Of a stretch of 40,000 nucleotides of DNA, positions 3,048 through 25,451 are shown in pieces. A program made the translations under genes and the position numbers. The stretch covers positions 1,574,130 through 1,614,129 of the forward strand of contig NZ_CP097810.1 of the NCBI RefSeq assembly GCF_000364165.2. The letters run 5' to 3'. Origin of the DNA: Clostridium sp. MD294 (GTDB lineage: Bacteria; Bacillota; Clostridia; Lachnospirales; Anaerotignaceae). How positions within the stretch are numbered: the stretch's first letter is position 1; each line of letters starts with the position of its first letter. Under the pieces are notes generated by a model. It was not told the DNA's origin, made no database searches, and saw only the letters and a list, made by a program, of their open reading frames with translations.

Positions 3048-3506
3048 ATGAAACTTGCTGAAGCATTGATTGAAAGAGCAGAAATTCAAAAAAAAAATGC
3101 ACAGCTTTTCAATCGTATTACAGGCAATGCAATGGTGCAGGAGGGAGATACTCCAGCAGAAAAACCAGAAGAATTAATTGCAGAATATGATGAAAATATG
3201 AAACGTCTGTTGTTTCTTGTGCAAAAAATAAATAAAACAAATGATACCACACCATTTGAAAATGGAACTGTAGCAGATGCCATTGCACAAAGAGATAATT
3301 TAAAAACAAAAATCAGTATGTATCGCTCTGTATATGAAGCAGCAACAATACGACCTGAACGTTATAGTCAAAAAGAAGTTAAATTTGTGAGATGTATTGA
3401 TGCAAAAGCATTACAGCATACTATAAATGAACTTTCTAAACAATATAGAGAAATAGATACAAAACTACAAGGAGTTAATTGGACTGTAGATTTGATAGAG
3501 ATGTAA
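3048..3506 (+). CDS. DIP1984-family (septicolysin-like) protein
   Basis: MKLAEALIERAEIQKK N-terminus, SQKEVKF and a C-terminal NWTVDLIE pattern match my memory of this ~155-aa family. The ATG at 3048 is preferred over the track start at 2994. Confidence 0.7.
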   Translation: MKLAEALIERAEIQKKNAQLFNRITGNAMVQEGDTPAEKPEELIAEYDENMKRLLFLVQKINKTNDTTPFENGTVADAIAQRDNLKTKISMYRSVYEAATIRPERYSQKEVKFVRCIDAKALQHTINELSKQYREIDTKLQGVNWTVDLIEM

Positions 3507-6148: not shown

Positions 6149-6736
6149 GTGACTGTTTTGAGTATTGATGTTGATATTGTAAAAACATTTGAAGAATTGG
6201 AAGAAGAAATACAAAAATTTAATAAATTAAAACAACAACAGCAAGAAATAGATTATGAACAAATTCCCACAGCAGTTGACGGTGGTGCGTTGGGAGATTT
6301 TAATGAATATATTACAACACATTATGATAAAAATAGACCTATAGGAGTAGAAGCGTTTTATCAAATAATGTCGTGGCAATGGTCGGCATTTTATGAAGGA
6401 ATAGAACTTTATTATGAAAATTTTTATGAAGAAAGTGATTATAAAACAATTATGCGTGTTGCACAATATTTAAAAGAAAATGGATATACTGAATTTAGTG
6501 AGTATTATGCTGCTCCAGCAGTAGAATATGAAGAAATTCCAGTAGAGGAATGGGAAGAATATTCAAATGGAGTAAAATATCGTCCAATGAACTATTATCC
6601 GGAAGAAATGTATCCGATATTGAAAAAAACAGAAAAATGGGCAGAAGAAAATATAGAAATGACTTGGAATTTTTATGTAGATGTTTTAATGAAAAATAAA
6701 TCAATATTGTTGGCATCACAGAAAGAAAATCAATAA
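6149..6736 (+). CDS. hypothetical acidic protein, paralog A of a tandem pair
   Basis: Long ORF with a non-ATG start (GTG 6149 or TTG 6158 after GAGGTG). Shares ELEE.IQK, DF.EY, KNRPI..EAF.QI..WQ, YLKENGY and WNFYVDVL.KNK blocks with the next ORF. Confidence 0.6.
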   Translation: MTVLSIDVDIVKTFEELEEEIQKFNKLKQQQQEIDYEQIPTAVDGGALGDFNEYITTHYDKNRPIGVEAFYQIMSWQWSAFYEGIELYYENFYEESDYKTIMRVAQYLKENGYTEFSEYYAAPAVEYEEIPVEEWEEYSNGVKYRPMNYYPEEMYPILKKTEKWAEENIEMTWNFYVDVLMKNKSILLASQKENQ

Positions 6737-6767: not shown

Positions 6768-7316
6768 GTGTTTTATTTGACTGTAGTAGAAATGTATCAA
6801 GAATTGGAGGAAGCGATACAAAAATTAAAAGAAGAAATAAGAGAAAAAGGAAAAGTAAAAGAATGGCCTTCATCATATAGTATAGTGTTGGGTAGTGAAA
6901 CATTGCCAGATTTTCACGAATATATGGTAAAATATTATAATAAAAATAGGCCAATATGGGCAGAAGCATTTCAACAGATTTATATTTGGCAGTTTGTAGC
7001 ACTTTATAAAAGCGAACAAGGACTGATTGACTATTATGATATGTTTAAAGAAAATAATAATTGTAACATAATTGTAGCTGTTTCAAAATATTTAAAAGAA
7101 AATGGGTATTGTAATATTTATAAATATTATGTTGCTCCTATAGTAACATATCATCAACAAAAATCAAAATATTTTGAATATCCGCATAGTATATTGCAAA
7201 AAACAAGAGATTGGATAGTAACAGAAGAAGGTCAAAAAGTGGTATGGAATTTTTATGTAGATGTGTTAAAAAAGAATAAATTAGAATTACTGGAAAGTGA
7301 AAAAGAAAAATTGTAA
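6768..7316 (+). CDS. hypothetical protein, paralog B of a tandem pair
   Basis: Same conserved blocks as 6149-6736. The start is ambiguous (GTG 6768, TTG 6777 or ATG 6792). Confidence 0.6.
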   Translation: MFYLTVVEMYQELEEAIQKLKEEIREKGKVKEWPSSYSIVLGSETLPDFHEYMVKYYNKNRPIWAEAFQQIYIWQFVALYKSEQGLIDYYDMFKENNNCNIIVAVSKYLKENGYCNIYKYYVAPIVTYHQQKSKYFEYPHSILQKTRDWIVTEEGQKVVWNFYVDVLKKNKLELLESEKEKL

Positions 7317-8890: not shown

Positions 8891-8914
8891 AGACTTACAG
8901 AATGTAAGTCTTTT
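8891..8914 (+). repeat. 24-nt hairpin direct repeat, copy 1 (agacttacagaatgtaagtctttt)
   Basis: Identical 24-mer recurs at 9115-9138. It is itself a hairpin (agacttac/gtaagtct) plus a T-run. Confidence 0.9.
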
Positions 8915-9114
8915 CAGCGTGTTGATAAAGTCGACACGCTAAGTCGAAAACAGGTTTTTGACTTGTTTAAATAGAAGTGTAAACAGCTTGTTCCATGGGC
9001 TTAAAAGCCTTAAAACTCGCTGTTTTCCTCAGACGAGCAAAGCTTGTCTTGCGGATTAGTATGGGGAGTTGCACTCCCCATACCCCTTACTTTTTACGGT
9101 AAAATGATGTTTTT
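8915..9114 (+). repeat. ~195-nt multi-hairpin element, left copy (candidate structured RNA; sense strand inferred as +)
   Basis: Reverse-complement match to 28250-28447. At least six hairpins (H1 8915-8940, H2 8941-8964, nested aacagc/gctgtt with ggctt/aagcc, H5 9031-9049, H6 9061-9081). The three G-T pairs in stems are wobble-compatible only on the + strand. Confidence 0.85.
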
Positions 9115-9138
9115 AGACTTACAGAATGTAAGTCTTTT
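9115..9138 (+). repeat. 24-nt hairpin direct repeat, copy 2
   Basis: Exact copy of 8891-8914, immediately flanking the left multi-hairpin element. Confidence 0.9.
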
Positions 9139-9154: not shown

Positions 9155-9799
9155 TTAAATGGGTACGAATTTTACATGTAATACTTTTCCAATAATGCGA
9201 ACACGATTTTGCTCTTCACCGGAGAAAATATAAGAAGAATAAGAAGGATTTTCAGGTTGTAGTACAAGAATATTTTCTTTTTTTAGTATACGCTTTAAAG
9301 TAGCGGTTTCGTCATCAATAGTAACAACAGCAATATCACCATTATTAACGTCAGATTGTTTGCGAACAAGAACAAGGTCGCCGTCATGTATGCGAGCGTT
9401 TATCATACTGTTGCCTTTTACACGAACATAAATGTATTCATAAGAGGGATTTAATTCAGAAGCATCAATTGCTTCGTAACCTTCTATGTAATTATCTGAA
9501 AAAGAGGGATTACCAGCATGAACAGAACCAACAATAGGCAATTTGATAATAGAATTGTTTGATTGATTTATATTGTGGGTGCTGTGAAGATAACCACAAG
9601 ATACTAATAAATCTTCATAATTTACAATAGAACTAGCAATACTTTGAAGCAAACGAGCAGAGGGAGGTCTGTCTAATTTTAAATTAAGATATTTAGAAAG
9701 ATAAGTACGGTTAAAACCAGTAATTTCTGCAAATTCCGTTGAAGTTTTGCCGTTCATTAACTTGATAAGTTGTTCTTTAAAAAGATGTTTTTGAAACAT
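9155..9799 (-). CDS. CI/LexA-like repressor (XRE-type HTH plus S24 autopeptidase domain)
   Basis: N-terminal HTH (TSTEFAEITGFNRTYLSKYLN), Ala-Gly cleavage site in VHAGNP, GNSM serine and ATLKR lysine of S24 peptidases. AAGGAG RBS. Divergent from the phage late operon. Confidence 0.85.
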   Translation of the reverse strand: MFQKHLFKEQLIKLMNGKTSTEFAEITGFNRTYLSKYLNLKLDRPPSARLLQSIASSIVNYEDLLVSCGYLHSTHNINQSNNSIIKLPIVGSVHAGNPSFSDNYIEGYEAIDASELNPSYEYIYVRVKGNSMINARIHDGDLVLVRKQSDVNNGDIAVVTIDDETATLKRILKKENILVLQPENPSYSSYIFSGEEQNRVRIIGKVLHVKFVPI

Positions 9800-9833
9800 G
9801 ATGAAGGGGAACTCCTTTCTGATATATTGATAA

Positions 9834-9849
9834 TCATATTATAATATGA
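9834..9849. promoter_or_regulatory. perfect 16-bp palindrome TCATATTATAATATGA (candidate operator)
   Basis: Self-complementary sequence located between the divergent repressor and late genes. It overlaps the minus-strand -10. Related half-sites (TAATATGA / TCATAT) recur at 9908-9930. Confidence 0.5.
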
Positions 9850-9866
9850 TAATGAAAAAAAGGCAA
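9838..9866 (-). promoter_or_regulatory. candidate repressor promoter (TTGCCT-17-TATAAT on the minus strand)
   Basis: Reverse complement of 9861-9866 is TTGCCT and of 9838-9843 is TATAAT, with a 17-nt spacer. About 40 nt upstream of the repressor ATG. Confidence 0.5.
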
Positions 9867-9886
9867 TTTATAGATGATGTTTTTTG

Positions 9887-9915
9887 TTGACAAAGAACAT
9901 ATGTGCTGATAATAT
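9887..9915 (+). promoter_or_regulatory. candidate rightward promoter (TTGACA-17-TAATAT) overlapped by inverted repeat GATAATA-N6-TATTATC (9908-9927)
   Basis: Consensus -35 hexamer, 17-nt spacer, and a -10 matching consensus at 5 of 6 positions. It points into the activator/terminase operon. Confidence 0.6.
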
Positions 9916-10005
9916 GAAAGTATTATCATATGTGAAATAAGGAGAGGGTTTATTCAAAGGAGTGTAGTATGATGTATTTGTGAAAAAAATTAACGATACA
10001 AAGAA

Positions 10006-10488
10006 ATGGGGAATGTTTTCATTATGAAAGAGAAGAAATTTCAAAATATAGAAAAAAAGGAAAGGGTTCAGATGAAAAAGAAGCTGTTCAGATGGGGGAG
10101 AACACTTGATTTTTGTCAAAGAAAACAAAGAGAGATTGATAAACTTCAAAAAATGGCAAAACAGTTTTTTATATTGGGAAAAAACGCACCATTTTTAGGA
10201 GAAGAAGTAGTCACTTTGGAAGAAGCAAAACAGATTTATGAAAGAGAAATCATAAAAATTGTGGAGTATATAGAGAAGGAGATGGAAGAATATTCAAAAA
10301 TGGGGAGATATATAGAACAGTTGGAATATGAGGAACAAATATTTTTAAAATTGAGATATGAAAAAGAGTATCAGTATAACTATATATCATTACAGCTTCA
10401 TAAAAGTAGAGCAAAATGCTTTAGGGACCATGATGTAATATTAGATAAGTTGATAGTGATATGCAAAGAACAAAAATTAGCCGCATAA
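10006..10488 (+). CDS. putative late-gene activator (Xpf/ArpU/RinA-like, sigma region-4-like C-terminus)
   Basis: Sits directly upstream of the small terminase gene, as xpf does in PBSX. The C-terminal EQIFLKLRYEKE..YISLQLHKSRAKCFR stretch resembles a region-4 HTH. The start could be ATG 10024. Confidence 0.4.
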   Translation: MGNVFIMKEKKFQNIEKKERVQMKKKLFRWGRTLDFCQRKQREIDKLQKMAKQFFILGKNAPFLGEEVVTLEEAKQIYEREIIKIVEYIEKEMEEYSKMGRYIEQLEYEEQIFLKLRYEKEYQYNYISLQLHKSRAKCFRDHDVILDKLIVICKEQKLAA

Positions 10489-10591
10489 ATAAAATAAAAA
10501 TGCTAGTGAAAATATAGAAAAAGTTGTAATAAAAAAATGAGACTTTTTGAGATTTTACAAAATATATTCTGTAGAGGAAAGGAGGAAAAGT

Positions 10592-10975
10592 ATGAAAAAA
10601 GGCTTGAGTAAAAATGAAATTGTGTTTTGCCGCCTGAAGGCAGAAGGGAAAACAGACTTGCAGGCGGCAGAAGGAGCAGGCTATGTAGAAGAATATGGTA
10701 AAAACTTGTTAAAAAAGGAATATATACAAAAAGAAATAAAAAGATTGTTAGAAGAAAAAAGGAAAGAAGAAATTGCTAATGATACAGATATATTGCAGTT
10801 TTTAACAAGTGTGATGAAAGGAGATGCCTATAAAGAAAAAAGTGATGCTGCTATAAAAGATAGAATGAAAGCAGCGGAGTTGTTGGGGAAAAGACAAAAT
10901 GTGTTTGAACAAATAGAGAATAAAAATGATGTAGTAATTATAGTAGATGATATAGTAAATAAAGGGAAGTGCTGA
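10592..10975 (+). CDS. terminase small subunit
   Basis: AGGAGG RBS then ATG at 10592. The N-terminal HTH-like LSKNEIVFCRLKAEGKTDLQAAEGAGY and KDRMKAAELLGK are typical of Terminase_2/XtmA-like proteins. Immediately precedes the large subunit. Confidence 0.7.
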   Translation: MKKGLSKNEIVFCRLKAEGKTDLQAAEGAGYVEEYGKNLLKKEYIQKEIKRLLEEKRKEEIANDTDILQFLTSVMKGDAYKEKSDAAIKDRMKAAELLGKRQNVFEQIENKNDVVIIVDDIVNKGKC

Positions 10976-10979
10976 AGGA

Positions 10980-12227
10980 ATGAAAGAAAATAAAATTCAG
11001 CTTTCAAAATTAATTGCGAAATCGTTTTATGAAGTACATAAAGATATTTGGTGTGAAAATAATACACATTATTGGTTAAAAGGAGGACGAGGCAGTACAA
11101 AATCATCATTTGTTTCATTAGAAATTGTGTTAGGTATCATGAAAGATAAACAAGCGAATGGTGTAGTACTTAGAAAAGTAGGGGTTCATATAAAAGATAG
11201 TGTGTTTGAGCAAATATGGTGGGCAATATCTGTTTTGGAAGTAGAACAACAATGGGAAGGGAAACAGTCATCACCGCTAGAAATAACATATATACCTACA
11301 GGACAAAAAATATTATTTAGGGGAGCAGATAATCCCAAAAAAATAAAATCCATAAAATGCCGAAAAGGATATGTAAAATATATATGGTATGAAGAAACAG
11401 ATGAATTTTCAGGAATGGCAGAGATAAGAAATATAAATCAGTCATTGATGAGAGGCGGTAAAAAATTTGTAGTATTTTATACCTATAACCCTCCAAAAAG
11501 TAAAATGAATTGGGTAAATAAAGAAGTTGAAAGAAAAAGAGAAGATAAATATATACATCATAGCACTTATGAAGAAGTACCCCAACAGTGGCTGGGAGAG
11601 CAATTTTTTATAGAAGCGGAGCATTTAAAACAGGTACAACCCGAAGTGTATCAACATGAATATATGGGAGAAGTGGTAGATACAGAAGGGACAGTGTTTC
11701 AAAATATAGTATTGAGAGAAATTACACAAGAGGAGATAGCTGCATTTGATAATGTGTCTAGAGGATTGGATTGGGGATATGCAATAGACCCACTGCATTA
11801 TACAGTAAATCACTATGATAAAACAAGGAAAAAACTTTATATATATTTTGAGATACAACAAAGGGGATTAAGTAATAGAAAAACATATGAAATGATAAAA
11901 CAAGAAAATAAACAAAATGGGGTAATTGTAGCAGATAGTGCAGAACCAAAATCTATAGCAGAAATGCAGTCGTATGGTTTGAGAATGATAGGAGCAAAAA
12001 AGGGACCTGATAGCGTAAACTATGGTATAAAATGGCTGCAAAGTCTGGAACAGATAGTAATAGATGAAAAAAGATGTCCTAATACAGCAAGAGAATTTTT
12101 TGAATATGAATTAGAGAGGGATATTGATAATAAATGGCTGTCAAAATTTCCAGATAAAAATAACCATGCAATAGATGCAGTGCGATATGCAAGGGAATAT
12201 GATATGCGAAATGTAAAAGTAACATAA
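10980..12227 (+). CDS. terminase large subunit (PBSX/XtmB family)
   Basis: 415 aa with a Walker A-like GGRGSTKS, WYEETDE (Walker B) and a C-terminal nuclease HAIDAVRYA motif. Confidence 0.9.
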   Translation: MKENKIQLSKLIAKSFYEVHKDIWCENNTHYWLKGGRGSTKSSFVSLEIVLGIMKDKQANGVVLRKVGVHIKDSVFEQIWWAISVLEVEQQWEGKQSSPLEITYIPTGQKILFRGADNPKKIKSIKCRKGYVKYIWYEETDEFSGMAEIRNINQSLMRGGKKFVVFYTYNPPKSKMNWVNKEVERKREDKYIHHSTYEEVPQQWLGEQFFIEAEHLKQVQPEVYQHEYMGEVVDTEGTVFQNIVLREITQEEIAAFDNVSRGLDWGYAIDPLHYTVNHYDKTRKKLYIYFEIQQRGLSNRKTYEMIKQENKQNGVIVADSAEPKSIAEMQSYGLRMIGAKKGPDSVNYGIKWLQSLEQIVIDEKRCPNTAREFFEYELERDIDNKWLSKFPDKNNHAIDAVRYAREYDMRNVKVT

Positions 12228-12244
12228 AAGGAAGGAGGGAAAAA

Positions 12245-13822
12245 ATGTATATCACAGAATTGGAATTGATGAAAGCGAAATTACAGTCAGAGAAAAAATG
12301 GAGCGAAAGTGAACTACTAAAAATGCTCATAGCAGAAGATGAAAATAGTAAAAAGAAAAAGGAAATGATAGAAGGAGAAAAATATTATTGCTGTGAGCAT
12401 AATGTGTTACAAAAGAACTTTTCAGTAAGACATTTTTCAGAAACATATAAAAATACACAAGGAGAAGAACAAGAAAGAATAAAATTACTTTCTAATCCAA
12501 ATAGAAGTAATCATCATGTAGTATGTCCTTTTCATCATATTTTGGTAGAACAGAAAGTTTCTTATTTGGTAGCAAAAGAGCCAAGCATATTAGTAAGGGG
12601 AAAAGAAATAACAGAATATGAAAGATATATGACAACAGTAGCAAATGAAGTATTTAATGGGGTGTTGTATGAGTGGCTTGTTGGGGCATCAAATAAAGGA
12701 ATAGAGTATGTTCATGTTTATTATGATAAAGAGGGCGTATTGCAGTATTGTGTTGTACCAGCGGAAGAATTGATTGTATTTTATAATTCTGTAAATAAAA
12801 AAGAAATAGAGCAAGTAATAAGATATTATCAATTTGTAGTAGTAGAAAATGGTAAAGAAAAAATAGTAAAAAAGGTAGAATGGTGGACAAAACAAGATGT
12901 CACATATTATATAGAAAAAGGAGATGGAAGCTATAAAAAAGAAGAACAACAAAAAATAGGACATTGGACAGTAGTAAAAGGAAAACAAGAACAGACAGAG
13001 AAAGAGCAACATGGTTGGGGGAGAGTACCATTTATAGCACTTCGAAATAATAGTAAAGAAATGTCTGATTTAAAAATGATAAAAGGCTTGGTAGATGCTT
13101 ATGATTTGATATGTAGTGAAGGAACAAATAGCTTGTTGGATTTGGTAGAACTGTATTGGGTAATAGCAGGATATGGAGGAGAAACAGCAAATGCCATAAC
13201 AAAAAAATTGCAAGTCAATAGAGCAGTACAAATTTCAGATGCTTCTGGAAAAGTAGAAACGAAACAGGTACATTTGCCTATAGAGGGTAGAATAGAATGG
13301 CTGAAATTGTTGAGAAAAGATATATTTCATTTTGGTATGGGAGTAGATACAGATAGTGAAAGATTGGGGAATGCACCAAGTGGAGTATCATTAAAATTTC
13401 AGTATGCTATGTTTAATTTAAAAATCAATGGCATAATACCTGAAATTAAAAAAGCATTGAAAGAGTTTTTTTGGTTTTTAATAGAAGATAATAATAGAAA
13501 AAATGGTACAGAATATGATGTAAATCAATTAGATTTTAGATTAAATCTAAATAGCATAACAGATGATATAGAAACAGTAAATATGATAACAGCATCAAAA
13601 GGTATTGTAAGCGAAAAAACACTTTTGGCACAGCACCCATTTGTACAAGATGTAAATAGTGAAATGGAAGCAATAAAACAAGAAAAAGAAAGGAATGAGA
13701 AATATCATGCAGATGGAGAAAATAGACAAACAAGAGCAATACAAAACAAAAGAACAAGAATACCAGCAGAAAATAGCACAGTTGAAAAAAGAAAAGGAAG
13801 AATTGAAACAGCAATACAATGA
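12245..13822 (+). CDS. portal protein (SPP1 gp6-like)
   Basis: 525 aa, positioned after the terminase, with an overall portal-like pattern. The charged C-terminal tail overlaps the next ORF by more than 100 nt. Confidence 0.8.
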   Translation: MYITELELMKAKLQSEKKWSESELLKMLIAEDENSKKKKEMIEGEKYYCCEHNVLQKNFSVRHFSETYKNTQGEEQERIKLLSNPNRSNHHVVCPFHHILVEQKVSYLVAKEPSILVRGKEITEYERYMTTVANEVFNGVLYEWLVGASNKGIEYVHVYYDKEGVLQYCVVPAEELIVFYNSVNKKEIEQVIRYYQFVVVENGKEKIVKKVEWWTKQDVTYYIEKGDGSYKKEEQQKIGHWTVVKGKQEQTEKEQHGWGRVPFIALRNNSKEMSDLKMIKGLVDAYDLICSEGTNSLLDLVELYWVIAGYGGETANAITKKLQVNRAVQISDASGKVETKQVHLPIEGRIEWLKLLRKDIFHFGMGVDTDSERLGNAPSGVSLKFQYAMFNLKINGIIPEIKKALKEFFWFLIEDNNRKNGTEYDVNQLDFRLNLNSITDDIETVNMITASKGIVSEKTLLAQHPFVQDVNSEMEAIKQEKERNEKYHADGENRQTRAIQNKRTRIPAENSTVEKRKGRIETAIQ

Positions 13823-14099
13823 AAAATTAAAACAGTATGTAGTACAGTCTGCATTAAAACAAGCAGGAGGAAGAAATACAAAAGCATTATTAGCATTGGT
13901 GGAATTGCAAGATATTGTTTTAAATGAAGATGGAACAGTAGAAGGATTGGATATAAAAAAATTAAAAAGAGAAGTCCCTTATTTATTTGAGGAAGAAAAC
14001 AAAAAAATAGAGGGAACGGGATATTATAGTACAAATAAAAAAGTAGATAAAAAAAGTGAAGCAGCAAAACAGTTTCAAACAGCATTGATGAGAAGATAA
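13707..14099 (+). CDS. scaffolding protein (GP20-like)
   Basis: Coiled-coil K/E/Q-rich ~130-aa protein between portal and capsid. The start is ambiguous (ATG 13695, 13707 or 13713). Confidence 0.55.
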   Translation: MQMEKIDKQEQYKTKEQEYQQKIAQLKKEKEELKQQYNEKLKQYVVQSALKQAGGRNTKALLALVELQDIVLNEDGTVEGLDIKKLKREVPYLFEEENKKIEGTGYYSTNKKVDKKSEAAKQFQTALMRR

Positions 14100-14115
14100 A
14101 AGGAGGAAAAATAGT

Positions 14116-15039
14116 ATGAGTATCAATACAATAGAATATGCAAAAATATTTATGGAAGCGTTAGATGAACAGCTAATAGCAGGAGCAACAAGTGGCTGGA
14201 TGGAAGAAAATAGTGGACAGATACAGTATACTGGAGGAAATGAGGTAAAAATACCAAAAATAGAATTGAATGGTCTGGGTACATATGATAGAGATAATGG
14301 ATTTGTGCAAGGTGCAGTAACATTGACATATGAAACAAAACAAATGACACAAGATAGAGGAAGAACATTTCAACTTGATGCGATAGATGTAGATGAAACA
14401 AATTTTGCATTGGTAGCAGGGAATGTAATGGGAGAATTTCAGAGAACAAAAGTAATACCAGAAATTGACGCATATCGCTATAGTAAAATAGCAGAATTGG
14501 CAACAGAAAGTAAAAAAGTGTCTTATTATCATGCTGAGAAAGATAGTATTGTACAAAAACTTTTAGAAGAAATCACAATAATAAAAGATATTGTAGGAGA
14601 TGAAAATGAAGTAATTGTAACAATGTCAACAAAAATAGCCAATTTGTTAGATATAGCAAGTAACCATATGTTGGAAAGTGGTGTTTTTGAACAGGGAAAA
14701 GTGGAATTGAAAGTTAAAAATATAGATGGAAGTCCTATTATAAGAGTGCCTTCTGCAAGATTAAAAACAAGCTATCAATTTTTTGATGGAGTAACAACAG
14801 GAGAAACAGAAGGTGGATTTGAAGCAAAAACAGATGCAAAAGATATAAATTGGATTATAGCAGTACGTCATGCGTTAATAGGAGTGTCTAAAACAGATGT
14901 AACAAGAATATTCGACCCATTAACAAATCAAAAAGCAAATGCTTGGAAAATTGACTATAGAAAATACCATGATTTGTGGATACCAGATAATGCAATAGAA
15001 GGAATATGGGTAAATATTGATGGACAAGCAACAGCATGA
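14116..15039 (+). CDS. major capsid protein (XkdG-like)
   Basis: 307 aa with a GGAGG RBS, positioned after the scaffold. The N-terminus MSINTIEYAKIF..LDEQL resembles PBSX-type capsid proteins. Confidence 0.8.
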   Translation: MSINTIEYAKIFMEALDEQLIAGATSGWMEENSGQIQYTGGNEVKIPKIELNGLGTYDRDNGFVQGAVTLTYETKQMTQDRGRTFQLDAIDVDETNFALVAGNVMGEFQRTKVIPEIDAYRYSKIAELATESKKVSYYHAEKDSIVQKLLEEITIIKDIVGDENEVIVTMSTKIANLLDIASNHMLESGVFEQGKVELKVKNIDGSPIIRVPSARLKTSYQFFDGVTTGETEGGFEAKTDAKDINWIIAVRHALIGVSKTDVTRIFDPLTNQKANAWKIDYRKYHDLWIPDNAIEGIWVNIDGQATA

Positions 15040-15055
15040 GCAGGTGATAAATAAA

Positions 15056-15487
15056 ATGAAACAAAATGATGAAAAAGAGCAATATTTTGTGACAGTAGAA
15101 GAAGTATATCAAAAAATAAAAGAGCTTAGAAAAAGTAAAGAAGAAATAAAAGAAAATGAAATAGAACAACAAACAGAGCAAGAAATAGAACAAATAGATG
15201 ATATATTGCTTTTTGCAAGTGAAAGAAGTATTGAAATGGTAAAGGGCTATTGTAATATAGAAAAAGTACCAAAAGAATTAAAGAATGTTTGTGTAGAAAT
15301 AACAATGTTGCTTTATGATAATGAGAATTATAGAGAAGAAGAAAAAAATGCTCGCTTGAAAAGTATAACAGAAGGTAATGTTTCGGTAAGCTACCAAAGT
15401 GAAAAAAGTAGTTGGAGAGAGCAAAAAAATGTTTTGTTGAGAACATTTTCAGAGGAATTAGATAAATTTAGAAATATGAAATGGTAG
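15056..15487 (+). CDS. head-tail connector (gp6-like / QLRG family)
   Basis: ATG 15056 after AGGTGA. The C-terminal LKSITEGNVSVSY motif is typical of Phage_connect_1 proteins. Confidence 0.6.
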   Translation: MKQNDEKEQYFVTVEEVYQKIKELRKSKEEIKENEIEQQTEQEIEQIDDILLFASERSIEMVKGYCNIEKVPKELKNVCVEITMLLYDNENYREEEKNARLKSITEGNVSVSYQSEKSSWREQKNVLLRTFSEELDKFRNMKW

Positions 15488-15524
15488 TAGTGAAATAGTA
15501 AGGGGAGGGAAAAGAGGTGAAAAT

Positions 15525-15884
15525 ATTATAAAAAGAACAAAAAGAGAAGTAGAGAAATTTTTTAATGAAAAATGTACTGTAACAGTATGGGAAAAACAAA
15601 AACAAAATTGGGGAGAAATATTGTTTGTAGAAAAAGAAGAAAAAAAACAAATAAAATGTAGATTGTGTAGAAGCCCTAAAATAGTAGTAAAAAATGGTGT
15701 TTTACCTGCAAAAATACTATATGATGCAGTATTGTTGTTTTGTAAAGAAGATGTGATAAAGGCAGGAAGTAATATAGAAATAGAGAAGGAGGGAGGGGAA
15801 AATATTGTATTTAAAAGTGTAGGAGAAATGGTAAGTTATAGTACACACAATGAAATTGCATTAAAAAGAGAAGATATAGCATAA
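15525..15884 (+). CDS. head-closure / head-tail adaptor-like protein (non-canonical start inferred)
   Basis: The frame is open from 15480. There is no ATG, GTG or TTG before 15621, but coding-like sequence (IIKRTKREVEKFFNEKCTVTVWEK...) begins at ATT 15525, 5 nt after GAGGTG. Confidence 0.4.
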   Translation: MIKRTKREVEKFFNEKCTVTVWEKQKQNWGEILFVEKEEKKQIKCRLCRSPKIVVKNGVLPAKILYDAVLLFCKEDVIKAGSNIEIEKEGGENIVFKSVGEMVSYSTHNEIALKREDIA

Positions 15885-15901
15885 AAAAGGGGGGAAAGTG
15901 A

Positions 15902-16342
15902 GTGGAGAAAGGGATATTACAAATTATAAAAGAAATTGTAATAAAAACAATAGCAGAACAATTTGAACAAAGTGAAGTATATGGGGAAGAAGTACCTCAA
16001 AATGGAAGTAAAAATTGTTTTGGAGTAAGTGTAAAAAGTGTAGAACAGAAACCACTTTTAAAGGGTAGACGAGAACAATGGATAACAATGAATGTAGAGT
16101 ATAGAAATGATGTAGAAAAAAGAGAAAAAGCAGAAAGTATAGAAAAAGTAGAAATACTTTATGATGTGTTGTCATTGATAGGGGAAGGGAAAAATAAATT
16201 TTTTGCAGTAAAAATGCAGCATAATATGACAGAAAAAGGATTTCAATTTGAAGTAACTTACTATGTGCAAATTATGCCTGTTGTAACACAAAGAAAAATG
16301 GAAAGATTAGAATATAATGGAAGTCAAGTAGTAGGATATTAA
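15902..16342 (+). CDS. tail completion / head-tail joining protein (XkdI/J position)
   Basis: 146 aa with a GTG start after GGGGGGAAAG. Its position between connector and sheath genes is the only support for the function. Confidence 0.45.
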   Translation: MEKGILQIIKEIVIKTIAEQFEQSEVYGEEVPQNGSKNCFGVSVKSVEQKPLLKGRREQWITMNVEYRNDVEKREKAESIEKVEILYDVLSLIGEGKNKFFAVKMQHNMTEKGFQFEVTYYVQIMPVVTQRKMERLEYNGSQVVGY

Positions 16343-16361
16343 AAAATAAGGAGGAAAAGGA

Positions 16362-16535
16362 GTGCAAGAAGAAAGAAATGTGTATGAAAAAGAACAGTTT
16401 TTGAAAAGTAAAAATAAAAAGTGGAATAAAGATGTTGTACAAGCAGTATTAAAAGAAGGGAAACAGTATAGTAAAAAAGAAGCCGAGAGATTAGTCAAAA
16501 TGTATTTAGAGGGAAAAAGAGAAAGGAGAAGATGA
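16362..16535 (+). CDS. small hypothetical phage protein (57 aa, below the track cutoff)
   Basis: GTG at 16362 lies 6 nt after AAGGAGGAAAAGGA. It fills the gap before the sheath gene, and its stop at 16533-16535 is 6 nt before the sheath ATG. Confidence 0.4.
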   Translation: MQEERNVYEKEQFLKSKNKKWNKDVVQAVLKEGKQYSKKEAERLVKMYLEGKRERRR

Positions 16536-16541
16536 AAGCGT

Positions 16542-17849
16542 ATGGCATTAGGAGGAGGTACTTATTTAGTACAAAATAAAATATTACCTGGAGCATATAT
16601 CAATTTTGTATCACAACCGAGAGCGATGGGAACATTGGGGGAAAGAGGTACTGTGTGCATGGCACTAGAATTAGATTGGGGAAAAAGTGGCATGATGACA
16701 GTAGAGGCAGAAGAATTTCAAACAGAAGCACAAGATATATTTGGGTATGATTATACCCATGAAAAAATGCAACCACTGAGAGAATTGTTTTTGTATGCAA
16801 AAAAGGCATTGATTTATCGTTGTAATAGTGGAGAAAAGGCAAGTGTAAAAGTAGGAGAATGTACTGTACAGGCAAAATGTGGCGGAACAAGAGGAAATGA
16901 TATAAAAATTGTAATTGCAAAAAATGTAGATGATGAAACAGCATTTGATGTAAGGACATATTTAGATTTGGTATTGCAAGATACACAAACAGTAAAAACA
17001 ATAGAAGAATTGAATGAAAATACTTATGTAGTATTTCAGGGAACAGGGGCATTGCAGGCAAATGCAGGAGTCAATTTAACAGGTGGAACAAATAAAGAAG
17101 TAACAGGAAATGATTATGCTGATTTTTTGGAAGAAGCAGAAAAAGAGAATTTCAATGTGTTGGCTTATGCAGGAGAAGATGAAGTAACAAAAGGATTGTT
17201 TACAGCTTTTACAAAAAGATTAAGAAATGAAGAAGGCGTAAAATTTGTAACAGTGTTGTTTCAGTATACAAAAGCAGATTTTGAAGGCGTTATTTCTGTA
17301 ACAAATGAAACAGAAGAACAGAAAACAGGTCTGGTGTATTGGACAGCAGGAGCAGAAGCAGGGGCAGAAGTAAATGAAAGTATAACAAATAAAAAATATA
17401 ATGGGGAATATAGCGTTAAAGCAAAATATAAAAAATCAAAATTTATAGAAGGATTGCAAAATGGGGAATTTTTGTATTATGAAGATGGCGATGATATTAG
17501 AGTACTGAGAGATATTAATACATTTACGTCATTTGAAAGTAATAAAAATAGTGATTTTTCAAGTAATAGAGTAATACGAGTGTTAGATGCTATAGCGAAT
17601 GATGTAGCAAGAATATTTAGTCAGTATTATTTGGGAAAACAAAGTAATAATGATAATGGAAGAAATCTGTTAAAAGCGGAATTGATACAGTATCATGAAC
17701 AATTAGAAGGAATAGAAGCAATAGAGGGTTTTGAACCAGAAGATATTACAATTATGCAGGGAATAGAAAAACAAGATGTTGTAGTGTATGAGAAAGTAAA
17801 ACCAATAGATGCTATGGAAAAATTGTATATGAAAGTAGAAGTTATTTAA
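16542..17849 (+). CDS. contractile tail sheath protein (XkdK-like)
   Basis: 435 aa with the characteristic N-terminus GGGTYLVQNKILPGAYINFVS. Followed by the tube gene. Confidence 0.9.
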   Translation: MALGGGTYLVQNKILPGAYINFVSQPRAMGTLGERGTVCMALELDWGKSGMMTVEAEEFQTEAQDIFGYDYTHEKMQPLRELFLYAKKALIYRCNSGEKASVKVGECTVQAKCGGTRGNDIKIVIAKNVDDETAFDVRTYLDLVLQDTQTVKTIEELNENTYVVFQGTGALQANAGVNLTGGTNKEVTGNDYADFLEEAEKENFNVLAYAGEDEVTKGLFTAFTKRLRNEEGVKFVTVLFQYTKADFEGVISVTNETEEQKTGLVYWTAGAEAGAEVNESITNKKYNGEYSVKAKYKKSKFIEGLQNGEFLYYEDGDDIRVLRDINTFTSFESNKNSDFSSNRVIRVLDAIANDVARIFSQYYLGKQSNNDNGRNLLKAELIQYHEQLEGIEAIEGFEPEDITIMQGIEKQDVVVYEKVKPIDAMEKLYMKVEVI

Positions 17850-17869
17850 TTAGGTGAGGGGGTAATAAA

Positions 17870-18325
17870 ATGGCGTATTTGAGAGCAAAAGATACAATAA
17901 ATGGAGCATTGGGTACTTGCTTTGCGTTAATCAATGGAAATCGATATGAAATTATGCAGGCGAAAAATGTAGAGGCAAAAGTAGAGAAAACAAAATCAGA
18001 AATACCAATATTGGGGCTGACATCAAAACAGCATAAAGCTGGAGGCTGGAAAGGTACTGGAACAATGGAGGTGTATTATGTTTCAAGTTTGTTTAGAAAG
18101 GTAATGTTAGAGTATATGAAAAATGGGGTGGATACTTATTTTGAATTGCTTGTAACAAATGAAGACCCTACAAGTGAAACAGGGAAACAAACAGTACTTT
18201 TAAAAGGAGTTAATATTGATAGTATGTTTATTACAAAATTAGATGTAGATAAAGAAGCATTAGATGAAGTATTGACATTTACATTTAATGATGCAGATTT
18301 GCTAGAAGCGTTTGAAGAATTGTAA
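17870..18325 (+). CDS. tail tube protein (XkdM-like)
   Basis: 151 aa, immediately after the sheath gene. The AKDTINGALGTCFALINGNRYE pattern is typical of XkdM-type tubes. Confidence 0.8.
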   Translation: MAYLRAKDTINGALGTCFALINGNRYEIMQAKNVEAKVEKTKSEIPILGLTSKQHKAGGWKGTGTMEVYYVSSLFRKVMLEYMKNGVDTYFELLVTNEDPTSETGKQTVLLKGVNIDSMFITKLDVDKEALDEVLTFTFNDADLLEAFEEL

Positions 18326-18402
18326 AAAAAAGAAAATAAAACAGTCCTCCATCTTATTAGATGGGGGACGTATATTATATAAATAAAAAGGAGTGTAAGG
18401 GA

Positions 18403-18747
18403 ATGCAGGCATATTATAAACAAAATAGAAAAGAAATAAAAAATAAAAAAATAGTAATTTCTGAGAGATTGGTAGATAAACAAGGAAATGTAGTTGTGTG
18501 GGAAATAAGACCATTAAGCCAAAAAGAAAATGAAAATATATTAAAAAAATGTAGAGCAATGAAAGAAGAAGGAAAACAAAATTTGTATGAGGTAATGGTA
18601 TTGGTAGAAAGTGTTGTGTTTCCAGATTTAAGTAATGTAGAACTGCAAAATAAATACCATGTGATAGGAAAAGAAGCATTACTTTTAGAAATGTTGACAG
18701 CAGGAGAATATGAAAAGCTGAAAAATGTGGTGGAAGAAGTGCAGTAA
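18403..18747 (+). CDS. XkdN-like tail assembly chaperone, paralog 1 (no frameshift extension, no tape measure downstream)
   Basis: ATG 18403 after AAGGAG. Shares the W.I..L..KE block and the C-terminal EMLT.GEY..L block with 20409-20777. Confidence 0.7.
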   Translation: MQAYYKQNRKEIKNKKIVISERLVDKQGNVVVWEIRPLSQKENENILKKCRAMKEEGKQNLYEVMVLVESVVFPDLSNVELQNKYHVIGKEALLLEMLTAGEYEKLKNVVEEVQ

Positions 18748-18763
18748 AAGGGGAGGAAAAAAT

Positions 18764-19426
18764 ATGTATCGATTTTATATGAAACAAAATGGAGAACAAA
18801 TATTGCTGCCAGTAGCACCATCAGAATTGATAACAAATGTAGAAGGAGAAAGTGAGAGAGTAGAGTTAGTAGATATAGGAGAGGGAAGTATATTAAAAGA
18901 TATAGGATTGAGAAGAATTTCTTTTACAGTGTTGCTGCCAGCAGTACAGTATAGTTTTGTACAAACAGAAGGTGTATTTCAGCCACCTATATTTTTTTTA
19001 AATCAGTTTAGACAGTATAAAATGAGTAAAAAACCAGTAAGTTTGATTGTGTTTCGAAAGTTAGCAGATGGTACAGAATTGTTTAGTGGAAATATAGATG
19101 TTTCTTTTGAAAGATATACAGTACTGGAAAGGGGAGGAGAACAAGGTGATTTTTGGGTAGAAATCAATTTGAAAGAATATAGGAAAATCACATCTGCAAC
19201 ATATAAAATAGAGCAAAAAGAGGGACAAACAGTATTAGAAGAATATGGAGTAAAAAGAGAAGGAAAAGAAATTCCAAATACTTATACAGTAAAAAAGGGA
19301 GATAGTTTGTGGAAAATTGCACAAACAATGCTAAATGATGGTAGTCGCTATAAAGAAATTGCAGAAAAAAATAATATTGTAAATCCCAATAAAATACAGA
19401 TAGGACAAATACTGCGTTTGGGGTGA
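18764..19426 (+). CDS. LysM-domain tail/baseplate protein (XkdP-like)
   Basis: ATG 18764 after GGGGAGG. C-terminal LysM (YTVKKGDSLWKIAQTML..IQIGQILRL). Confidence 0.8.
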   Translation: MYRFYMKQNGEQILLPVAPSELITNVEGESERVELVDIGEGSILKDIGLRRISFTVLLPAVQYSFVQTEGVFQPPIFFLNQFRQYKMSKKPVSLIVFRKLADGTELFSGNIDVSFERYTVLERGGEQGDFWVEINLKEYRKITSATYKIEQKEGQTVLEEYGVKREGKEIPNTYTVKKGDSLWKIAQTMLNDGSRYKEIAEKNNIVNPNKIQIGQILRLG

Positions 19427-20406
19427 TAAAAATGAAAATTAAAATGCTTGTAAAAAATAATAATAAAATGTATGATGCAACAAATTTGTTAGAAGGAGAG
19501 GTTGTTGTAGAGAAAAGTATTATAGGGACTTGTGGAAAAATGACTTGTTCTATTATAAGAGATGGCGTAACACAGTTTGTAGAAGGAAATCAAATACAAT
19601 TTTATGCAGAAGATAAATTATTTTTTTCAGGGTGGATAATGAAAAAAAGTAGAACTTCTAAACAAATTATAGAAGTAACGGCATATGACCAGTTTTTTTA
19701 TTTGGTACAAAATAAAGATACCTATGTGTATTATAACAAAAAAGCATCAGAACTCATACAAATGATAGCGAATGATTATGGCTTAGAAATGGGAGAAATT
19801 TGTAATACAATGTGGCAAATTCCGCAAAGAATAGAAGAAGGTCAAACACTTTGGGATATGATTAATACAGCACTAAATTTAACAAAAAAGGAGATAGGGA
19901 AAGAATATTTTTTTTATGATGAAGGGGGAAAATTAACACTAACAGAAAAAAGTGATATGGTAACAAATGAAGTGTTGCAGTGTGATGGAAGTATAGAAGA
20001 TTATATTTATATAACAGATATATCAGAAGATACTTATAATGGTGTACAGCTGTTTCAGGCGGGAAGATTGGAAACAGAAAAATTGTCTTATAGAGAAGAA
20101 AAAGAAGAAGAAATTAAAAAATGGGGCAGAATATTGTACTATCAAAGAGTAGACCATAGATTAACACAGTATGATTTAAGAGCAATAGGAAATACAATTT
20201 TGTCACAAAAATGCCGTGTAAAAAAGACATTGCTATTAAAACAATTTTCAGAAAAATTAATATTAATACCAGGCCAGTCTATTTATATAGAATTACCAGA
20301 ATTGGCTGAAATTAGTTTAAAAGGTATGTTTGTAATAGAAAAAGGAATTTATCATTTTTTTAATGGAGGATATAAAGCAGATTTGAATATAAGAATGGAG
20401 GAGTAA
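19423..20406 (+). CDS. XkdQ/YqbQ-like baseplate hub protein (gpD/late control D-like)
   Basis: 327 aa with a GTGA stop-start overlap with the LysM gene (alternative ATG at 19432). Size and position match xkdQ. Confidence 0.7.
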   Translation: MIKMKIKMLVKNNNKMYDATNLLEGEVVVEKSIIGTCGKMTCSIIRDGVTQFVEGNQIQFYAEDKLFFSGWIMKKSRTSKQIIEVTAYDQFFYLVQNKDTYVYYNKKASELIQMIANDYGLEMGEICNTMWQIPQRIEEGQTLWDMINTALNLTKKEIGKEYFFYDEGGKLTLTEKSDMVTNEVLQCDGSIEDYIYITDISEDTYNGVQLFQAGRLETEKLSYREEKEEEIKKWGRILYYQRVDHRLTQYDLRAIGNTILSQKCRVKKTLLLKQFSEKLILIPGQSIYIELPELAEISLKGMFVIEKGIYHFFNGGYKADLNIRMEE

Positions 20407-20408
20407 TT

Positions 20409-20777
20409 ATGATAGAAGAAAAATATTTGCTAGAAGAAAAAGAAATTGAAGTATCTAAAAGATTTATAGGAGAAAATGGAAAACCTCTGAAATGGAGAAT
20501 AAAAGCATTAAAAGAAAAAGAACATCAAAAAATAAAACAAACAAAAACAACAGAAGCAATAGAGCAATATTGGGGAAAATTGTGTGCTAGTTGTGTTGTA
20601 ATACCAAATTTGAATGATAGAGAACTTTTAAAAAGTTATGGCTGTGATAAAGCAGATGAAGTATTGAAAGAAATGCTTACAATGGGAGAATATATGATAC
20701 TTTTGAAAGCAGTAAGAGAACAAAATTGCTTTGAACAAAGAGAACAAAAAATAAAAAATGATATAAAAAAGCAATAA
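20409..20777 (+). CDS. XkdN-like tail assembly chaperone, paralog 2 (zero-frame product)
   Basis: 122 aa, paralogous to 18403-18747. It ends 3 codons after an A_AAA_AAG slippery heptamer. Confidence 0.7.
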   Translation: MIEEKYLLEEKEIEVSKRFIGENGKPLKWRIKALKEKEHQKIKQTKTTEAIEQYWGKLCASCVVIPNLNDRELLKSYGCDKADEVLKEMLTMGEYMILLKAVREQNCFEQREQKIKNDIKKQ

Positions 20778-20890
20778 AGGAGGGTAGAGCAGAAACAGAT
20801 TATGCTGCTTATGCTCTCCGACATTATCATATATTGCCAAGTCAATATTTTCGTATGGATTTCGAACAGAAAATGTTTATAAAAAGTGTA
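20765..20890 (+). other. predicted -1 programmed ribosomal frameshift site (A_AAA_AAG, 20765-20771) with a 39-codon -1 extension to the stop at 20888-20890
   Basis: The heptamer is in the correct phase with the 20409 frame. The -1 frame is open from 20762 and encodes AIKEGRAETDYAAYALRHYHILPSQYFRMDFEQKMFIKV. The arrangement mirrors the gpG/gpGT chaperone pair upstream of tape-measure genes. Confidence 0.6.
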
Positions 20891-20913
20891 ATAGATTTGG
20901 AACTGGAGGAGAG

Positions 20914-22206
20914 GTGATGATAATGTTTTCTTTTTATAAAAAACAGTTTTTAAAAAATGAAAAAGGAAATGATTTTTTTTGGCGTTGGTATGAACAGGAA
21001 GAAATGCAAAAGAAAAGTATATTGTGGCGACAACAATATCTGTATGAAAATAAACAACAGTCGCTGTATAAAATGGTTGGAGAGAAAGAAAATAGTATAA
21101 AAAATAATAAAGAGAAAAAAAGTGTTGAAAAAGAAATAAAAAAGAAACAAAAACAGGAAAATAGTATATTTAAAAAACAAGAAATATTTGAAAAACAAAA
21201 AACAAAAAGTATGTTTGATGAAATACAGTATCAAAAAGAATATGAAGAATATAAACAAACAGAAGAACAAAAAAGACAACAACAACAGAAAAAAAGTGAT
21301 ATAGAAAAACAATACCAAATTGAAAAAGAAAAACAAATAAAATATCAGATACAAAATAAATATGAAATAGAAAAACAGTACCAAATAGAACAACAAAAAC
21401 AATATCAAAAACAAAAACAGCAACGATACCAACAACAAAAACAAAATATACAACAAAAACAGCAAGAATATGAACAACAAATTCAAAAACAACAACAAAA
21501 AAGAAAACAAACACAACAGCAAAATGAAAATAAAAGAGAACAAAAAAGACAAGAATTACAACAATATAAAATAGATAAAAAAAATCAAAAACAAAGTGAA
21601 AGTGTATGGGAAATAGAAAAACAAAATAGAGAATATAACAAAGAGATAGAAAAACAGAAATACTTTGATATAAAAGAAATATTTGATAAAAAAGGAAGCG
21701 AAAATAAAAAAGAGAAACAGAATAAAGTAGTGTTAAAAGAAATAAAAAAAGGTGATATTTGGGGATATGGAAATAGCATTTTAAAAAAAGAAAAAAAAGA
21801 AAGTGTTTTTAATTTAGGAAAACAAATATTACAACAAAAAGAATATAGTGTAAAAAATAATATAGAAAAAATAAAACAAAAGAATTTAGAACAAAAACAA
21901 AATAAAAAACAATGGCAAAAAGAAGTGTGGCCTGGTTCAGAACAAAAAAGAGATATAAAAAGTGTGTGGGAAAAAGAAAATAAAAATATAGAACAAATAG
22001 AACAATATAATAAAAAAATAAATACAGAAATAATACAAAATGTTGTAAAAAATAGTTTAAAACAAAAAGAAGAGCAAAAACAGCAAAAACAACAAGTGCA
22101 GCAAAAGCAACAAAATGTTGATATAAATACATTGTTTTTACATATGACAGAAAAGCTGTTAGAACAAAGAGAGAGAAGTTTGAGAGCAAGTCAAATGAAA
22201 ATATGA
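20914..22206 (+). CDS. K/Q/E-rich low-complexity protein in the tape-measure position (putative atypical tape measure)
   Basis: A 430-codon open frame in AT-rich DNA, with a GGAGGAGAGG RBS (ATG at 20917). It lies directly after the chaperone/frameshift pair and before the XkdR-like gene. I recognise no sequence motif. Confidence 0.45.
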   Translation: MMIMFSFYKKQFLKNEKGNDFFWRWYEQEEMQKKSILWRQQYLYENKQQSLYKMVGEKENSIKNNKEKKSVEKEIKKKQKQENSIFKKQEIFEKQKTKSMFDEIQYQKEYEEYKQTEEQKRQQQQKKSDIEKQYQIEKEKQIKYQIQNKYEIEKQYQIEQQKQYQKQKQQRYQQQKQNIQQKQQEYEQQIQKQQQKRKQTQQQNENKREQKRQELQQYKIDKKNQKQSESVWEIEKQNREYNKEIEKQKYFDIKEIFDKKGSENKKEKQNKVVLKEIKKGDIWGYGNSILKKEKKESVFNLGKQILQQKEYSVKNNIEKIKQKNLEQKQNKKQWQKEVWPGSEQKRDIKSVWEKENKNIEQIEQYNKKINTEIIQNVVKNSLKQKEEQKQQKQQVQQKQQNVDINTLFLHMTEKLLEQRERSLRASQMKI

Positions 22207-22221
22207 AATGGGGAAAAAAGT

Positions 22222-22578
22222 ATGTTAGAAGCAGTAAAATTGTTGGCATATGATGTATTGCAGCAAGAAAATATAGCAGATATTTGTTATGGTACTGTAA
22301 CAGCAACAGAACCACTAAAAATAATATTGGAGCAAAAATTAGAATTAACAGAAAATTTTTTGATATTGTCACAAAATGTAATGAAACATTATGAAAGCTT
22401 TTATATGAGGAAAAAAGATAGTAATGAACAGTGGGAACACTATGAAATCATAATTGAAAAGGAACTAAAAAAGGGAGAAAGAGTCATATTGATGAAAATG
22501 ACAGGAGGACAAAGATATGTCGTATTGGATAGAGTAGGAGAGGAGATGACAGAAAATGAAACTGACACCACAGTCTGA
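22222..22578 (+). CDS. XkdR-like baseplate protein (DUF2577-like)
   Basis: 118 aa. The GTVTATEPLKIILEQKLELTENFLIL pattern is typical of DUF2577. Confidence 0.7.
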   Translation: MLEAVKLLAYDVLQQENIADICYGTVTATEPLKIILEQKLELTENFLILSQNVMKHYESFYMRKKDSNEQWEHYEIIIEKELKKGERVILMKMTGGQRYVVLDRVGEEMTENETDTTV

Positions 22579-22963
22579 AATAGAAGTAAATAGTAATGTG
22601 GTTATACAAAAAATACCTACATTAACTTATAGAGTGCAAAAAGAAAAAGAAATTGTTTCTGGTACAGTAGATGAATTGGAAGCAATGAAACAGGCAGTGT
22701 TTAAAATATTGTTTACAGAAAGATACCAGTATGAAATTTATAATTGGGAGTATGGTATGGAATTGAAAGATTTGTTTGGTAGAGCAAAAAGTTATGTGAT
22801 ACCAGAAATGAAAAAGAGAATTGAGGAGGCATTGCTGGCGGATGATAGAATAAAAGCAGTAACAGATTTTCAATTTGGAGGGAAAAAAGGAGAATTGGAA
22901 GTAAAATTTAAAGTACATACTATATTTGGAACACTAGAAATAGAAAGGACGGTTGATATTTAA
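22556..22963 (+). CDS. XkdS-like baseplate protein (DUF2634 / gpW-like)
   Basis: 135 aa that overlaps the previous gene. The TYRV...GTVDELEAMKQAVFKILFTERYQYEIY pattern is typical of DUF2634. Confidence 0.7.
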   Translation: MKLTPQSEIEVNSNVVIQKIPTLTYRVQKEKEIVSGTVDELEAMKQAVFKILFTERYQYEIYNWEYGMELKDLFGRAKSYVIPEMKKRIEEALLADDRIKAVTDFQFGGKKGELEVKFKVHTIFGTLEIERTVDI

Positions 22964-24599: not shown

Positions 24600-24632
24600 A
24601 TAATAAAATATGTTTCAAAATTTAATGTGTCA

Positions 24633-24661
24633 GCGTGTCGATAAAATCGACACGTTTTTTT
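24633..24661 (+). terminator. rho-independent terminator; its hairpin is a third copy of hairpin H1 of the multi-hairpin element
   Basis: cgtgtcga-taaaa-tcgacacg plus T7. 24631-24654 matches 8915-8938 at 22 of 24 positions in direct orientation. Confidence 0.85.

Positions 24662-24761: not shown

Positions 24762-25451
<690 letters not shown>

Follow-up and report, generated by a model that had tools for sequence, protein, structure and literature searches.

Two inverted structured repeats in Clostridium sp. MD294 are independent insertions, probably of a small transposon that duplicates whole hairpins

Folding MITEs of bacteria include Correia/CREE (Neisseria), RUP, BOX (Streptococcus pneumoniae), ERIC and bcr1 (Bacillus cereus). 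These repeats are often found in 3' UTRs, are co-transcribed and may carry outward promoter elements, and the element described here is like them in being small, non-coding, multicopy, intergenic and highly structured, with inverted-repeat ends. However, they duplicate 2-5 bp of target (TA, TTTAT), whereas the present element duplicates a whole palindrome of 12-34 bp, and its central core is more conserved than its ends, which is unusual among folding MITEs. We know of no sequence similarity between the element and CREE, RUP, BOX, ERIC or bcr1, and its resemblance to pneumococcal BOX (boxA-boxB-boxC) is that of a modular hairpin repeat only. In CRISPR spacer integration and in casposons, staggered integration by Cas1 on either side of a palindromic repeat duplicates that repeat (14-15 bp in casposons); this is an analogy only, the element having no Cas1 or CRISPR context and many unrelated hairpin targets. 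Elements of the IS200/IS605 type leave their target unduplicated and go in on the 3' side of a fixed tetra- or pentanucleotide, while duplications in the IS1182 family range from 0 to 60 bp (ISfinder).

Within the IS1182 family, the staphylococcal IS1272 and TnSha1 recognise a DNA secondary structure, often a confirmed terminator, without primary-sequence specificity, and they delete or replace the stem-loop with no target duplication (PMC4923244, PMC5678879). Some family members target palindromes, according to the statement of Siguier et al. (2015) quoted in PMC4923244. Like IS1272, the element has hairpin targets, mostly terminators (9/10 of its duplications are complete hairpins), but where IS1272 deletes the hairpin the element duplicates the whole stem-loop, corresponding to pathway b, the hairpin duplication that Wan et al. 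(2017) included as a hypothetical option in modelling IS1272 (PMC5678879). Long target duplications that vary between copies (8-514 bp) are made by IS1549/IS1634 and have no accepted mechanism; coincidence with palindromes is not reported for them, in contrast to the element, where the hairpin sets the length (PMC2266710). Duplication of a whole hairpin by a transposon was not found documented in the literature searched, where it is drawn only as a possibility. The kind of element is a known one, the MITE, and what is new is insertion at the feet of a hairpin, duplication of the whole hairpin and a conserved structured core.

The two copies lie in inverted orientation in a 40,000-nt stretch of the Clostridium sp. 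MD294 genome (the window; Table 1). In our assessment they are very probably independent insertions of a hairpin-duplicating, non-autonomous DNA transposon (MITE) of ~210 nt that is moved in trans. An earlier note on this DNA, made from the sequence alone, had reported that the two segments align end to end with ~18 differences, and the alignment of 8915-9114 (+) with 28247-28447 (-) bears this out, with about 91% identity (91.0-91.3%) over 201 columns. The note had also seen one series of hairpins in both copies, and folding gives matching helices: H1, H2, a nested P3 around a small hairpin, H5, H6 and a weak 3' stem, with MFE z-scores against dinucleotide shuffles of -6.5 for the left copy and -8.9 for the right. 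The extents need adjustment, since the right copy is 10 nt longer than had been described and ends in TTTTTTGACAGATTG, and the left copy lacks its last 10-13 nt. A deletion of 13 nt between microhomologous TGAC and AGAC may account for this loss. Neither copy was thought to carry a conserved ORF, and we agree; overlapping ORFs are short and frame-shifted between the copies. A reading frame of ~30 codons runs through the core. Because the right copy has a frameshift in it, and because its amino-acid changes are the stem-compensating ones, a small protein was rejected as its product.

Table 1. Coordinates in the window of the element copies, their ends, their target-site duplications and related features.
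Feature	Position	Strand	Description
Copy 1 left target-site duplication	8891-8914	+	AGACTTACAGAATGTAAGTCTTTT, terminator hairpin + T4; 24/24 identical to 9115-9138
Element copy 1	8915-9114	+	200 nt; alignments, fold, covariance model 232 bits
Copy 1 left end			CAGCGTGTTGATAAA, intact
Copy 1 right terminal TGACAGATTG			Missing, 10-13 nt
Copy 1 right target-site duplication	9115-9138	+	
Solitary H1-like hairpin	24631-24654	+	CAGCGTGTCGATAAAATCGACACG, then T7 (to 24660); terminator of Gp48-like gene
Copy 2 downstream target-site duplication	28216-28236	-	AAATAATATTATTTATTATCA
Promoter-like hybrid site	28218-28247	-	TTGACA (element right end), 18 nt, TATTAT (flank)
Element copy 2	28237-28447	-	211 nt, full length; covariance model 247.7 bits
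Copy 2 right inverted repeat	28237-28251	-	TTTTTTGACAGATTG
Copy 2 left inverted repeat	28433-28447	-	CAGCGTGTCGATAAA
Copy 2 upstream target-site duplication (element orientation)	28448-28468	-	AAATAATATTGTTTATTATTA, AT-rich palindrome; matches 28216-28236 at 19/21

Close relatives carry empty sites at both loci. Between ttcA and the GH3 gene, the relative L026 (TtcA 95% identical) has a spacer of 217 nt with one AAATAATGTAATTTATTATCA, whereas the spacer of the window is 460 nt long and holds the element between two copies of the 21-mer. Between the LysM and S24 genes, the spacer of L032 (S24 repressor 95% identical) measures 109 nt and contains a single hairpin, AAAAGACTTACGATATGTAAGTCTTTTTT; that of the window measures 335 nt, and in it the element lies between two identical 24-mers. 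Copy 1 is absent from its locus in L032, L033 and L037. Since close relatives have empty sites with a single hairpin at both loci, the two copies are proven to be independent insertions, with target duplications of 24 and 21 nt. More distant relatives (82-89%) also lack the element at both loci, the covariance model finding none there, and the insertions in the MD294 lineage are therefore the derived state.

The copies bracket a phage-like cluster that extends from 9155 to 27316 between the LysM and ttcA genes, and encodes an S24/HTH repressor, small and large terminase subunits, an SPP1-type portal, baseplate J, a Mu Gp48-like protein, a resolvase, a NUDIX protein and a tyrosine integrase. 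It was therefore considered whether the pair might be the terminal repeats or attachment sites of a 19-kb phage-like region, as its position around the genes from repressor to integrase, with terminase, portal and baseplate genes, could suggest. However, the copies are inverted and not direct, each has an unrelated target duplication of its own, and the element is also found at many unrelated loci. As relatives hold the same cluster in the same place without either copy, the copies are unrelated to the ends of the cluster, and that they face each other is a coincidence. These empty sites rule out att sites or terminal repeats of a prophage, a reading to which we give next to no probability. 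The cluster itself is found in the same place in relatives down to ~82-89% protein identity. It has the look of a prophage or tail-like particle locus that has been resident for long and is possibly domesticated, and not of a recent integration.

The element is dispersed. Thirteen further copies were found in genomes of mouse-gut Clostridia and one divergent relative in a metagenome. A scan of species representatives (one genome per species) for the exact left-end 20-mer returned 10 loci, all from uncultured mouse-gut Clostridia and 7/10 from a single MAG (MGBC150949), and all 10 hold full-length copies with sharp boundaries. The MAG holds at least 7 copies. The hosts of the element are Clostridium sp. 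MD294 and uncultured mouse-gut Clostridia related to it, and the copies found by the homologue search are dispersed, each with a target duplication. A metagenome scan with an invariant core 20-mer added a partial copy (L011) and the divergent member (L014), plus four chance matches inside GC-rich or coding sequence of no relation to it. From ten copies a covariance model was built, and this finds 15 copies in the window and the loci together, with 120-265 bits; within the window it matches, beyond the two copies, only a solitary H1-like hairpin at 24632-24656. No match was found by BLAST of the 200-mer against phage and plasmid collections or by exact-pattern scans of viral contigs, and extension of the source contig by ~11 kb rightward and ~7 kb leftward revealed no further copy. 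The size of the element is 198-211 nt across the family (typically ~210 nt), with no coding capacity beyond short ORFs, and the right copy of the window is closer to the copy in L006, from another species (95.4%), than to the left copy (91.3%). In several samples, short-read contigs of the window's species break off 2-30 nt past the left boundary of the element, or at the right somewhere in its final ~90 nt. A multicopy repeat should behave in this way, and the element breaks short-read assemblies of these gut Clostridia.

In L007 (5155-5943), two inverted copies 370 nt apart bracket a small gene for a Cys/Gly/Asn-rich peptide (~70 aa). The right end of the more divergent copy, L007b, is atypical and similar to the left flank of that copy. 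The copy at L001 3975-4237 (-) has a 54-nt insertion inside the H6 hairpin that is ~91% homologous to a hairpin module of another repeat family at the same locus, and this similarity suggests modular hairpin shuffling. At L002 1822-1866 a right-end fragment (...AAAGTTTATTGACAGACTG) stands alone, immediately ahead of a terminator hairpin and just past the stop of a gene, and the hairpin is not duplicated upstream. Either a copy has decayed here or the motif is used in a different way.

Direct repeats of local sequence flank 10/10 independent insertions (24, 21, 34, 21, 23, 12, 29, 27, 26 and 25 nt). In 9/10, the duplicated unit is a complete hairpin or palindrome from foot to foot, and most of these palindromes have the A and T runs typical of intrinsic terminators. 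The exception is L009, in which the 12 nt duplicated are the 5' half of a hairpin and part of its loop. The layout is a hairpin with 1-4 T, the element, and the hairpin again with its full T tract, and the flanks are not conserved between insertions. The duplications begin with A in 10/10 insertions and end with T in 9/10, and therefore the duplicated segment starts with A on both strands. Such symmetric duplications fit two-ended, DDE-type integration into a cruciform. By this mechanism, a putative transposase acting in trans, for which a DDE-type enzyme is a candidate, would attack the feet of an extruded cruciform symmetrically and at both ends, 5' of the A at each foot of the palindrome, and fill-in repair would then duplicate the entire stem-loop and leave a complete hairpin on each side. 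The sites used are palindromes, mostly the hairpins of intrinsic terminators.

Target duplications that are long and variable in length, and truncated copies, would also be accounted for by a SINE-like retroelement, the RNA of which is inserted by target-primed reverse transcription at a nick beside the hairpin. Copy 1 and L007b, which lack a right end and yet abut the repeat, and the T-rich 3' region of the element are in line with such an origin. However, each duplication is a single palindrome with an A start on both strands, a symmetry to be expected of a DNA transposase acting at two ends, and the element does have terminal inverted repeats. Neither the window nor the loci contain a reverse transcriptase; the 13 nt lost from copy 1 are explicable by the microhomology noted above; and right-end truncations together with the solitary right-end fragment in L002 make up no consistent pattern of 5' truncation. 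Because the duplications are symmetric and the ends inverted, a retroelement origin is unlikely, and we regard it as quite improbable.

An IS200/IS605-type palindrome-associated element, or an orphan omega RNA scaffold with TnpA/TnpB encoded elsewhere, would share with the element an architecture of ~200 non-coding nt in several hairpins, and the sequence adjacent to the 3' end repeats the 5' one, which is formally like a guide against the empty site. There is also a very weak Rfam alignment to IS605-orfB-I, but its 12.5 bits are far below the gathering score of 94.2; no tnpA or tnpB was found nearby, and the flanks are not conserved. The duplications of 12-34 nt exclude IS200/IS605-type elements, and the whole reading is left with a very slight chance only. 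For the MITE, the transposon family thus documented, with empty sites as proof, is one in which the target duplication is a whole hairpin; landing in terminators that are regenerated on both sides would give it a low-damage niche.

The ends of the element are imperfect 15-nt terminal inverted repeats, 5'-CAGNGTGTYRAWAAA ... TTTWTTGACAGNYTG-3', and between them a row of hairpins surrounds the 85-nt core. The left end CAGCGTGTCGATAAA agrees with the reverse complement of TTTTTTGACAGAYTG at 10-11/15 positions, the reverse complements of the right end being CAGTCTGTCAAAAAA or CAATCTGTCAAAAAA in the main family. The ends are kept in the divergent member L014, in which CAGAGTGTTAAAAAA and CAGGCTGTCAAAAAA match at 12/15. 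A transposase-bearing element with these ends was not found by fuzzy end search across the loci (~280 kb), nor was an IS1182-type transposase or a matching inverted repeat identified. An all-against-all comparison of the loci revealed no long repeats and no parent IS, and in the scan of species representatives every match to the left-end 20-mer is a MITE copy and none an autonomous IS.

Two other families of small non-coding elements are present in L001, at 3199-3462 (+; 264 nt) and 349-549 (-; 201 nt). They end in TTTTTTGACAAGCTG and TTTATTGACAGATTG and have the right end TTTWTTGACARNYTG in common with the element, and they are flanked by duplicated hairpins, but their left ends are unrelated, with no convincing match to the element. 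As only the right end is shared, the transposition machinery may be asymmetric, with one end more important to it than the other. Modules of the 349-549 family are seen again at L001 1073-1173, L009 2945-3051 and L006 4887-4928, with extra hairpins inserted.

The element is thus small, non-coding and multicopy, with inverted repeats, target duplication and presence/absence polymorphism, and these comparisons demonstrate its dispersal, target duplications, empty sites and insertion polarity, together with conserved ends, core and pairing. Against the MITE reading stand the absence of an autonomous partner from the loci, the imperfect inverted repeats, the right end alone being common to the two other families in L001, the deletion of the hairpin by IS1272 as the documented hairpin-targeting IS, the half hairpin duplicated in L009, and a conservation of the core and of orthologous copies (210/210 identical) that exceeds the neutral decay expected of a MITE. 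The earlier proposal of a novel structured RNA or BOX-like repeat holds in its second half, the dispersal, duplications, empty sites and contig breaks strongly supporting a mobile repeat, but not as far as an RNA with a sense strand is concerned. We class the element as a mobile repeat, not as a new RNA gene, and with this a false lead is removed; nor is the window pair tied to the phage-like region that it brackets.

Pairing in the element is well conserved. In the family alignment 97.8% of 597 cells form standard pairs, dropping to 34-48% in slid controls, and 7 pairs have changed on both sides compared with 1.5 in shuffles (0/500 shuffles reach the observed number). Differences were thus rightly said to preserve pairing, and the compensatory A-T/G-C swaps reported between the two window copies are seen at columns 129/143 and 189/200 of alignment A3. 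Also present are the three G-T pairs of the left copy (columns 9/19, 32/45 and 131/141), from which an RNA with a defined sense strand had been deduced. All three are in the truncated copy that is richest in private substitutions (15 relative to the family consensus), and family-wide G-T pairs (~6 events) and A-C mismatches (~4 events), which are G-U on the other strand, are similarly frequent, so the strand argument is not supported across the family. The complementary strands of the left and right copies give MFE z-scores of -5.9 and -11.7; as they fold about equally well, folding energy does not choose a strand either. A test of covariation upholds the conserved pairing and not the sense strand: DNA hairpins produce the same covariation equally, and RNA pairing is not separable from DNA pairing by this means.

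Conservation is uneven along the element. The central 85 nt (A3 columns 71-156) are 82-90% identical between L014 and the main family, compared with 31-50% elsewhere, and in L014 the H6 and inner P3 hairpins keep their fold with other sequences. Between GTDB species, orthologous copies agree at 210/210 positions, beside adjacent flanks, and even target duplications, that are ~6% different; L002 and L004, for instance, differ at ~10 of 173 nt upstream of the element and at ~5 of 45 nt downstream of it. From these alignments, orthologue identity points to either sequence constraint on the element or repeated conversion or re-insertion. Because pairing is kept, the core is conserved and orthologues are identical, an additional function at the RNA or DNA level is possible, the core and orthologue data being neutral between the two levels.

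These observations could also be taken to mean that the element serves in the first place as a structured RNA with a function, such as an sRNA borne in a 3' UTR or a cis-regulator, with mobility secondary or ancestral. Read-through of the upstream gene would produce its transcript, which would stop at the duplicated terminator. The extent of pairing and its two-sided changes, the altered hairpins of L014, the conserved core, the identical orthologues and the position of 8/10 insertions 35-96 nt downstream of a co-oriented gene would all agree with such an RNA. On the other hand, the wobble pairs have no strand asymmetry, both strands fold equally well and the same covariation is expected from DNA hairpins. 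No internal promoter is evident inside the element. Co-orientation is found in 4 of the unambiguous tandem-gene contexts and anti-orientation in 1, which is not significant, and orientation relative to terminators likewise has no significant bias. The element is moreover dispensable at the window loci, since close relatives there lack it. Both the primacy of an RNA function and its transcription by read-through therefore appear rather doubtful.

Comparison with known RNA families gave nothing that would strengthen the functional-RNA interpretation. As had been supposed earlier, no known family is matched: in the whole window no Rfam family reaches its gathering threshold, and the tRNA/tmRNA scan found none. 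At permissive E-values, three regions yielded sub-threshold matches only, none of which recurs. The best of these matches is to the Clostridiales-2 RNA (RF02937), aligned on the minus strand with the H6 hairpin and an adjacent AAGGGG motif (26.7 bits). It falls short of the gathering score, 58.6, extends over no more than ~70 nt and is not seen again in L014.

The MITE reading can be taken a step further. The element may be the natural footprint of an undescribed structure-specific transposition system directed at extruded cruciforms or terminator hairpins, which would join the element to their feet and double the entire stem-loop, with a working terminator left on either side. The 85-nt core would then be no passive filler but a functional RNA or a protein-binding module, either needed by the element or co-opted by the host; we put this forward tentatively, as a possibility on the weaker side. 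Conservation of the core beyond neutral decay makes the element a reasonable candidate for a search for a transcript and for a transposase.

Placed in 3' UTRs, the element could rewire the expression of neighbouring genes through -35-like hexamers at its ends. At the right end of copy 2, the hybrid site of Table 1 faces ttcA (28107-27388) and has 11/12 matches in a consensus scan, and is a consensus match only. At the left end of the same copy, a promoter-like match at 28437-28466 (+; TCGACA, 18 nt, TATTAT, 10/12) is directed towards the GH3 gene. Both matches are outward, and therefore each end of the element carries an outward -35-like hexamer.

The terminator of the Gp48-like gene at 24631 shares almost all of the element's first 24 nt, the terminal CAGCG among them. 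At the same place a 91% relative, L046, has CGTGTTGATTTTATCAACACG and lacks the upstream 26 nt; on account of this compensated version of the terminator, a decayed element copy was rejected. Judged by the two sequences, the terminator may be related to the left end of the element without being a copy of it, and either source, conversion or coincidence could account for the likeness.

Other repeats were seen in the window apart from the element. Adjacent ORFs at 6149-6736 and 6768-7316 (195 and 182 aa), for the counterparts of which no Pfam hit is recorded, are tandem paralogues with ~70% DNA identity over several stretches. Long Gln/Glu/Lys-rich low-complexity repeats occur at 21100-21600, in a 430-aa ORF of the phage-like cluster, and repeats of the same composition are found at 35590-35760, at the N-terminus of an SLH/transglutaminase-core protein.
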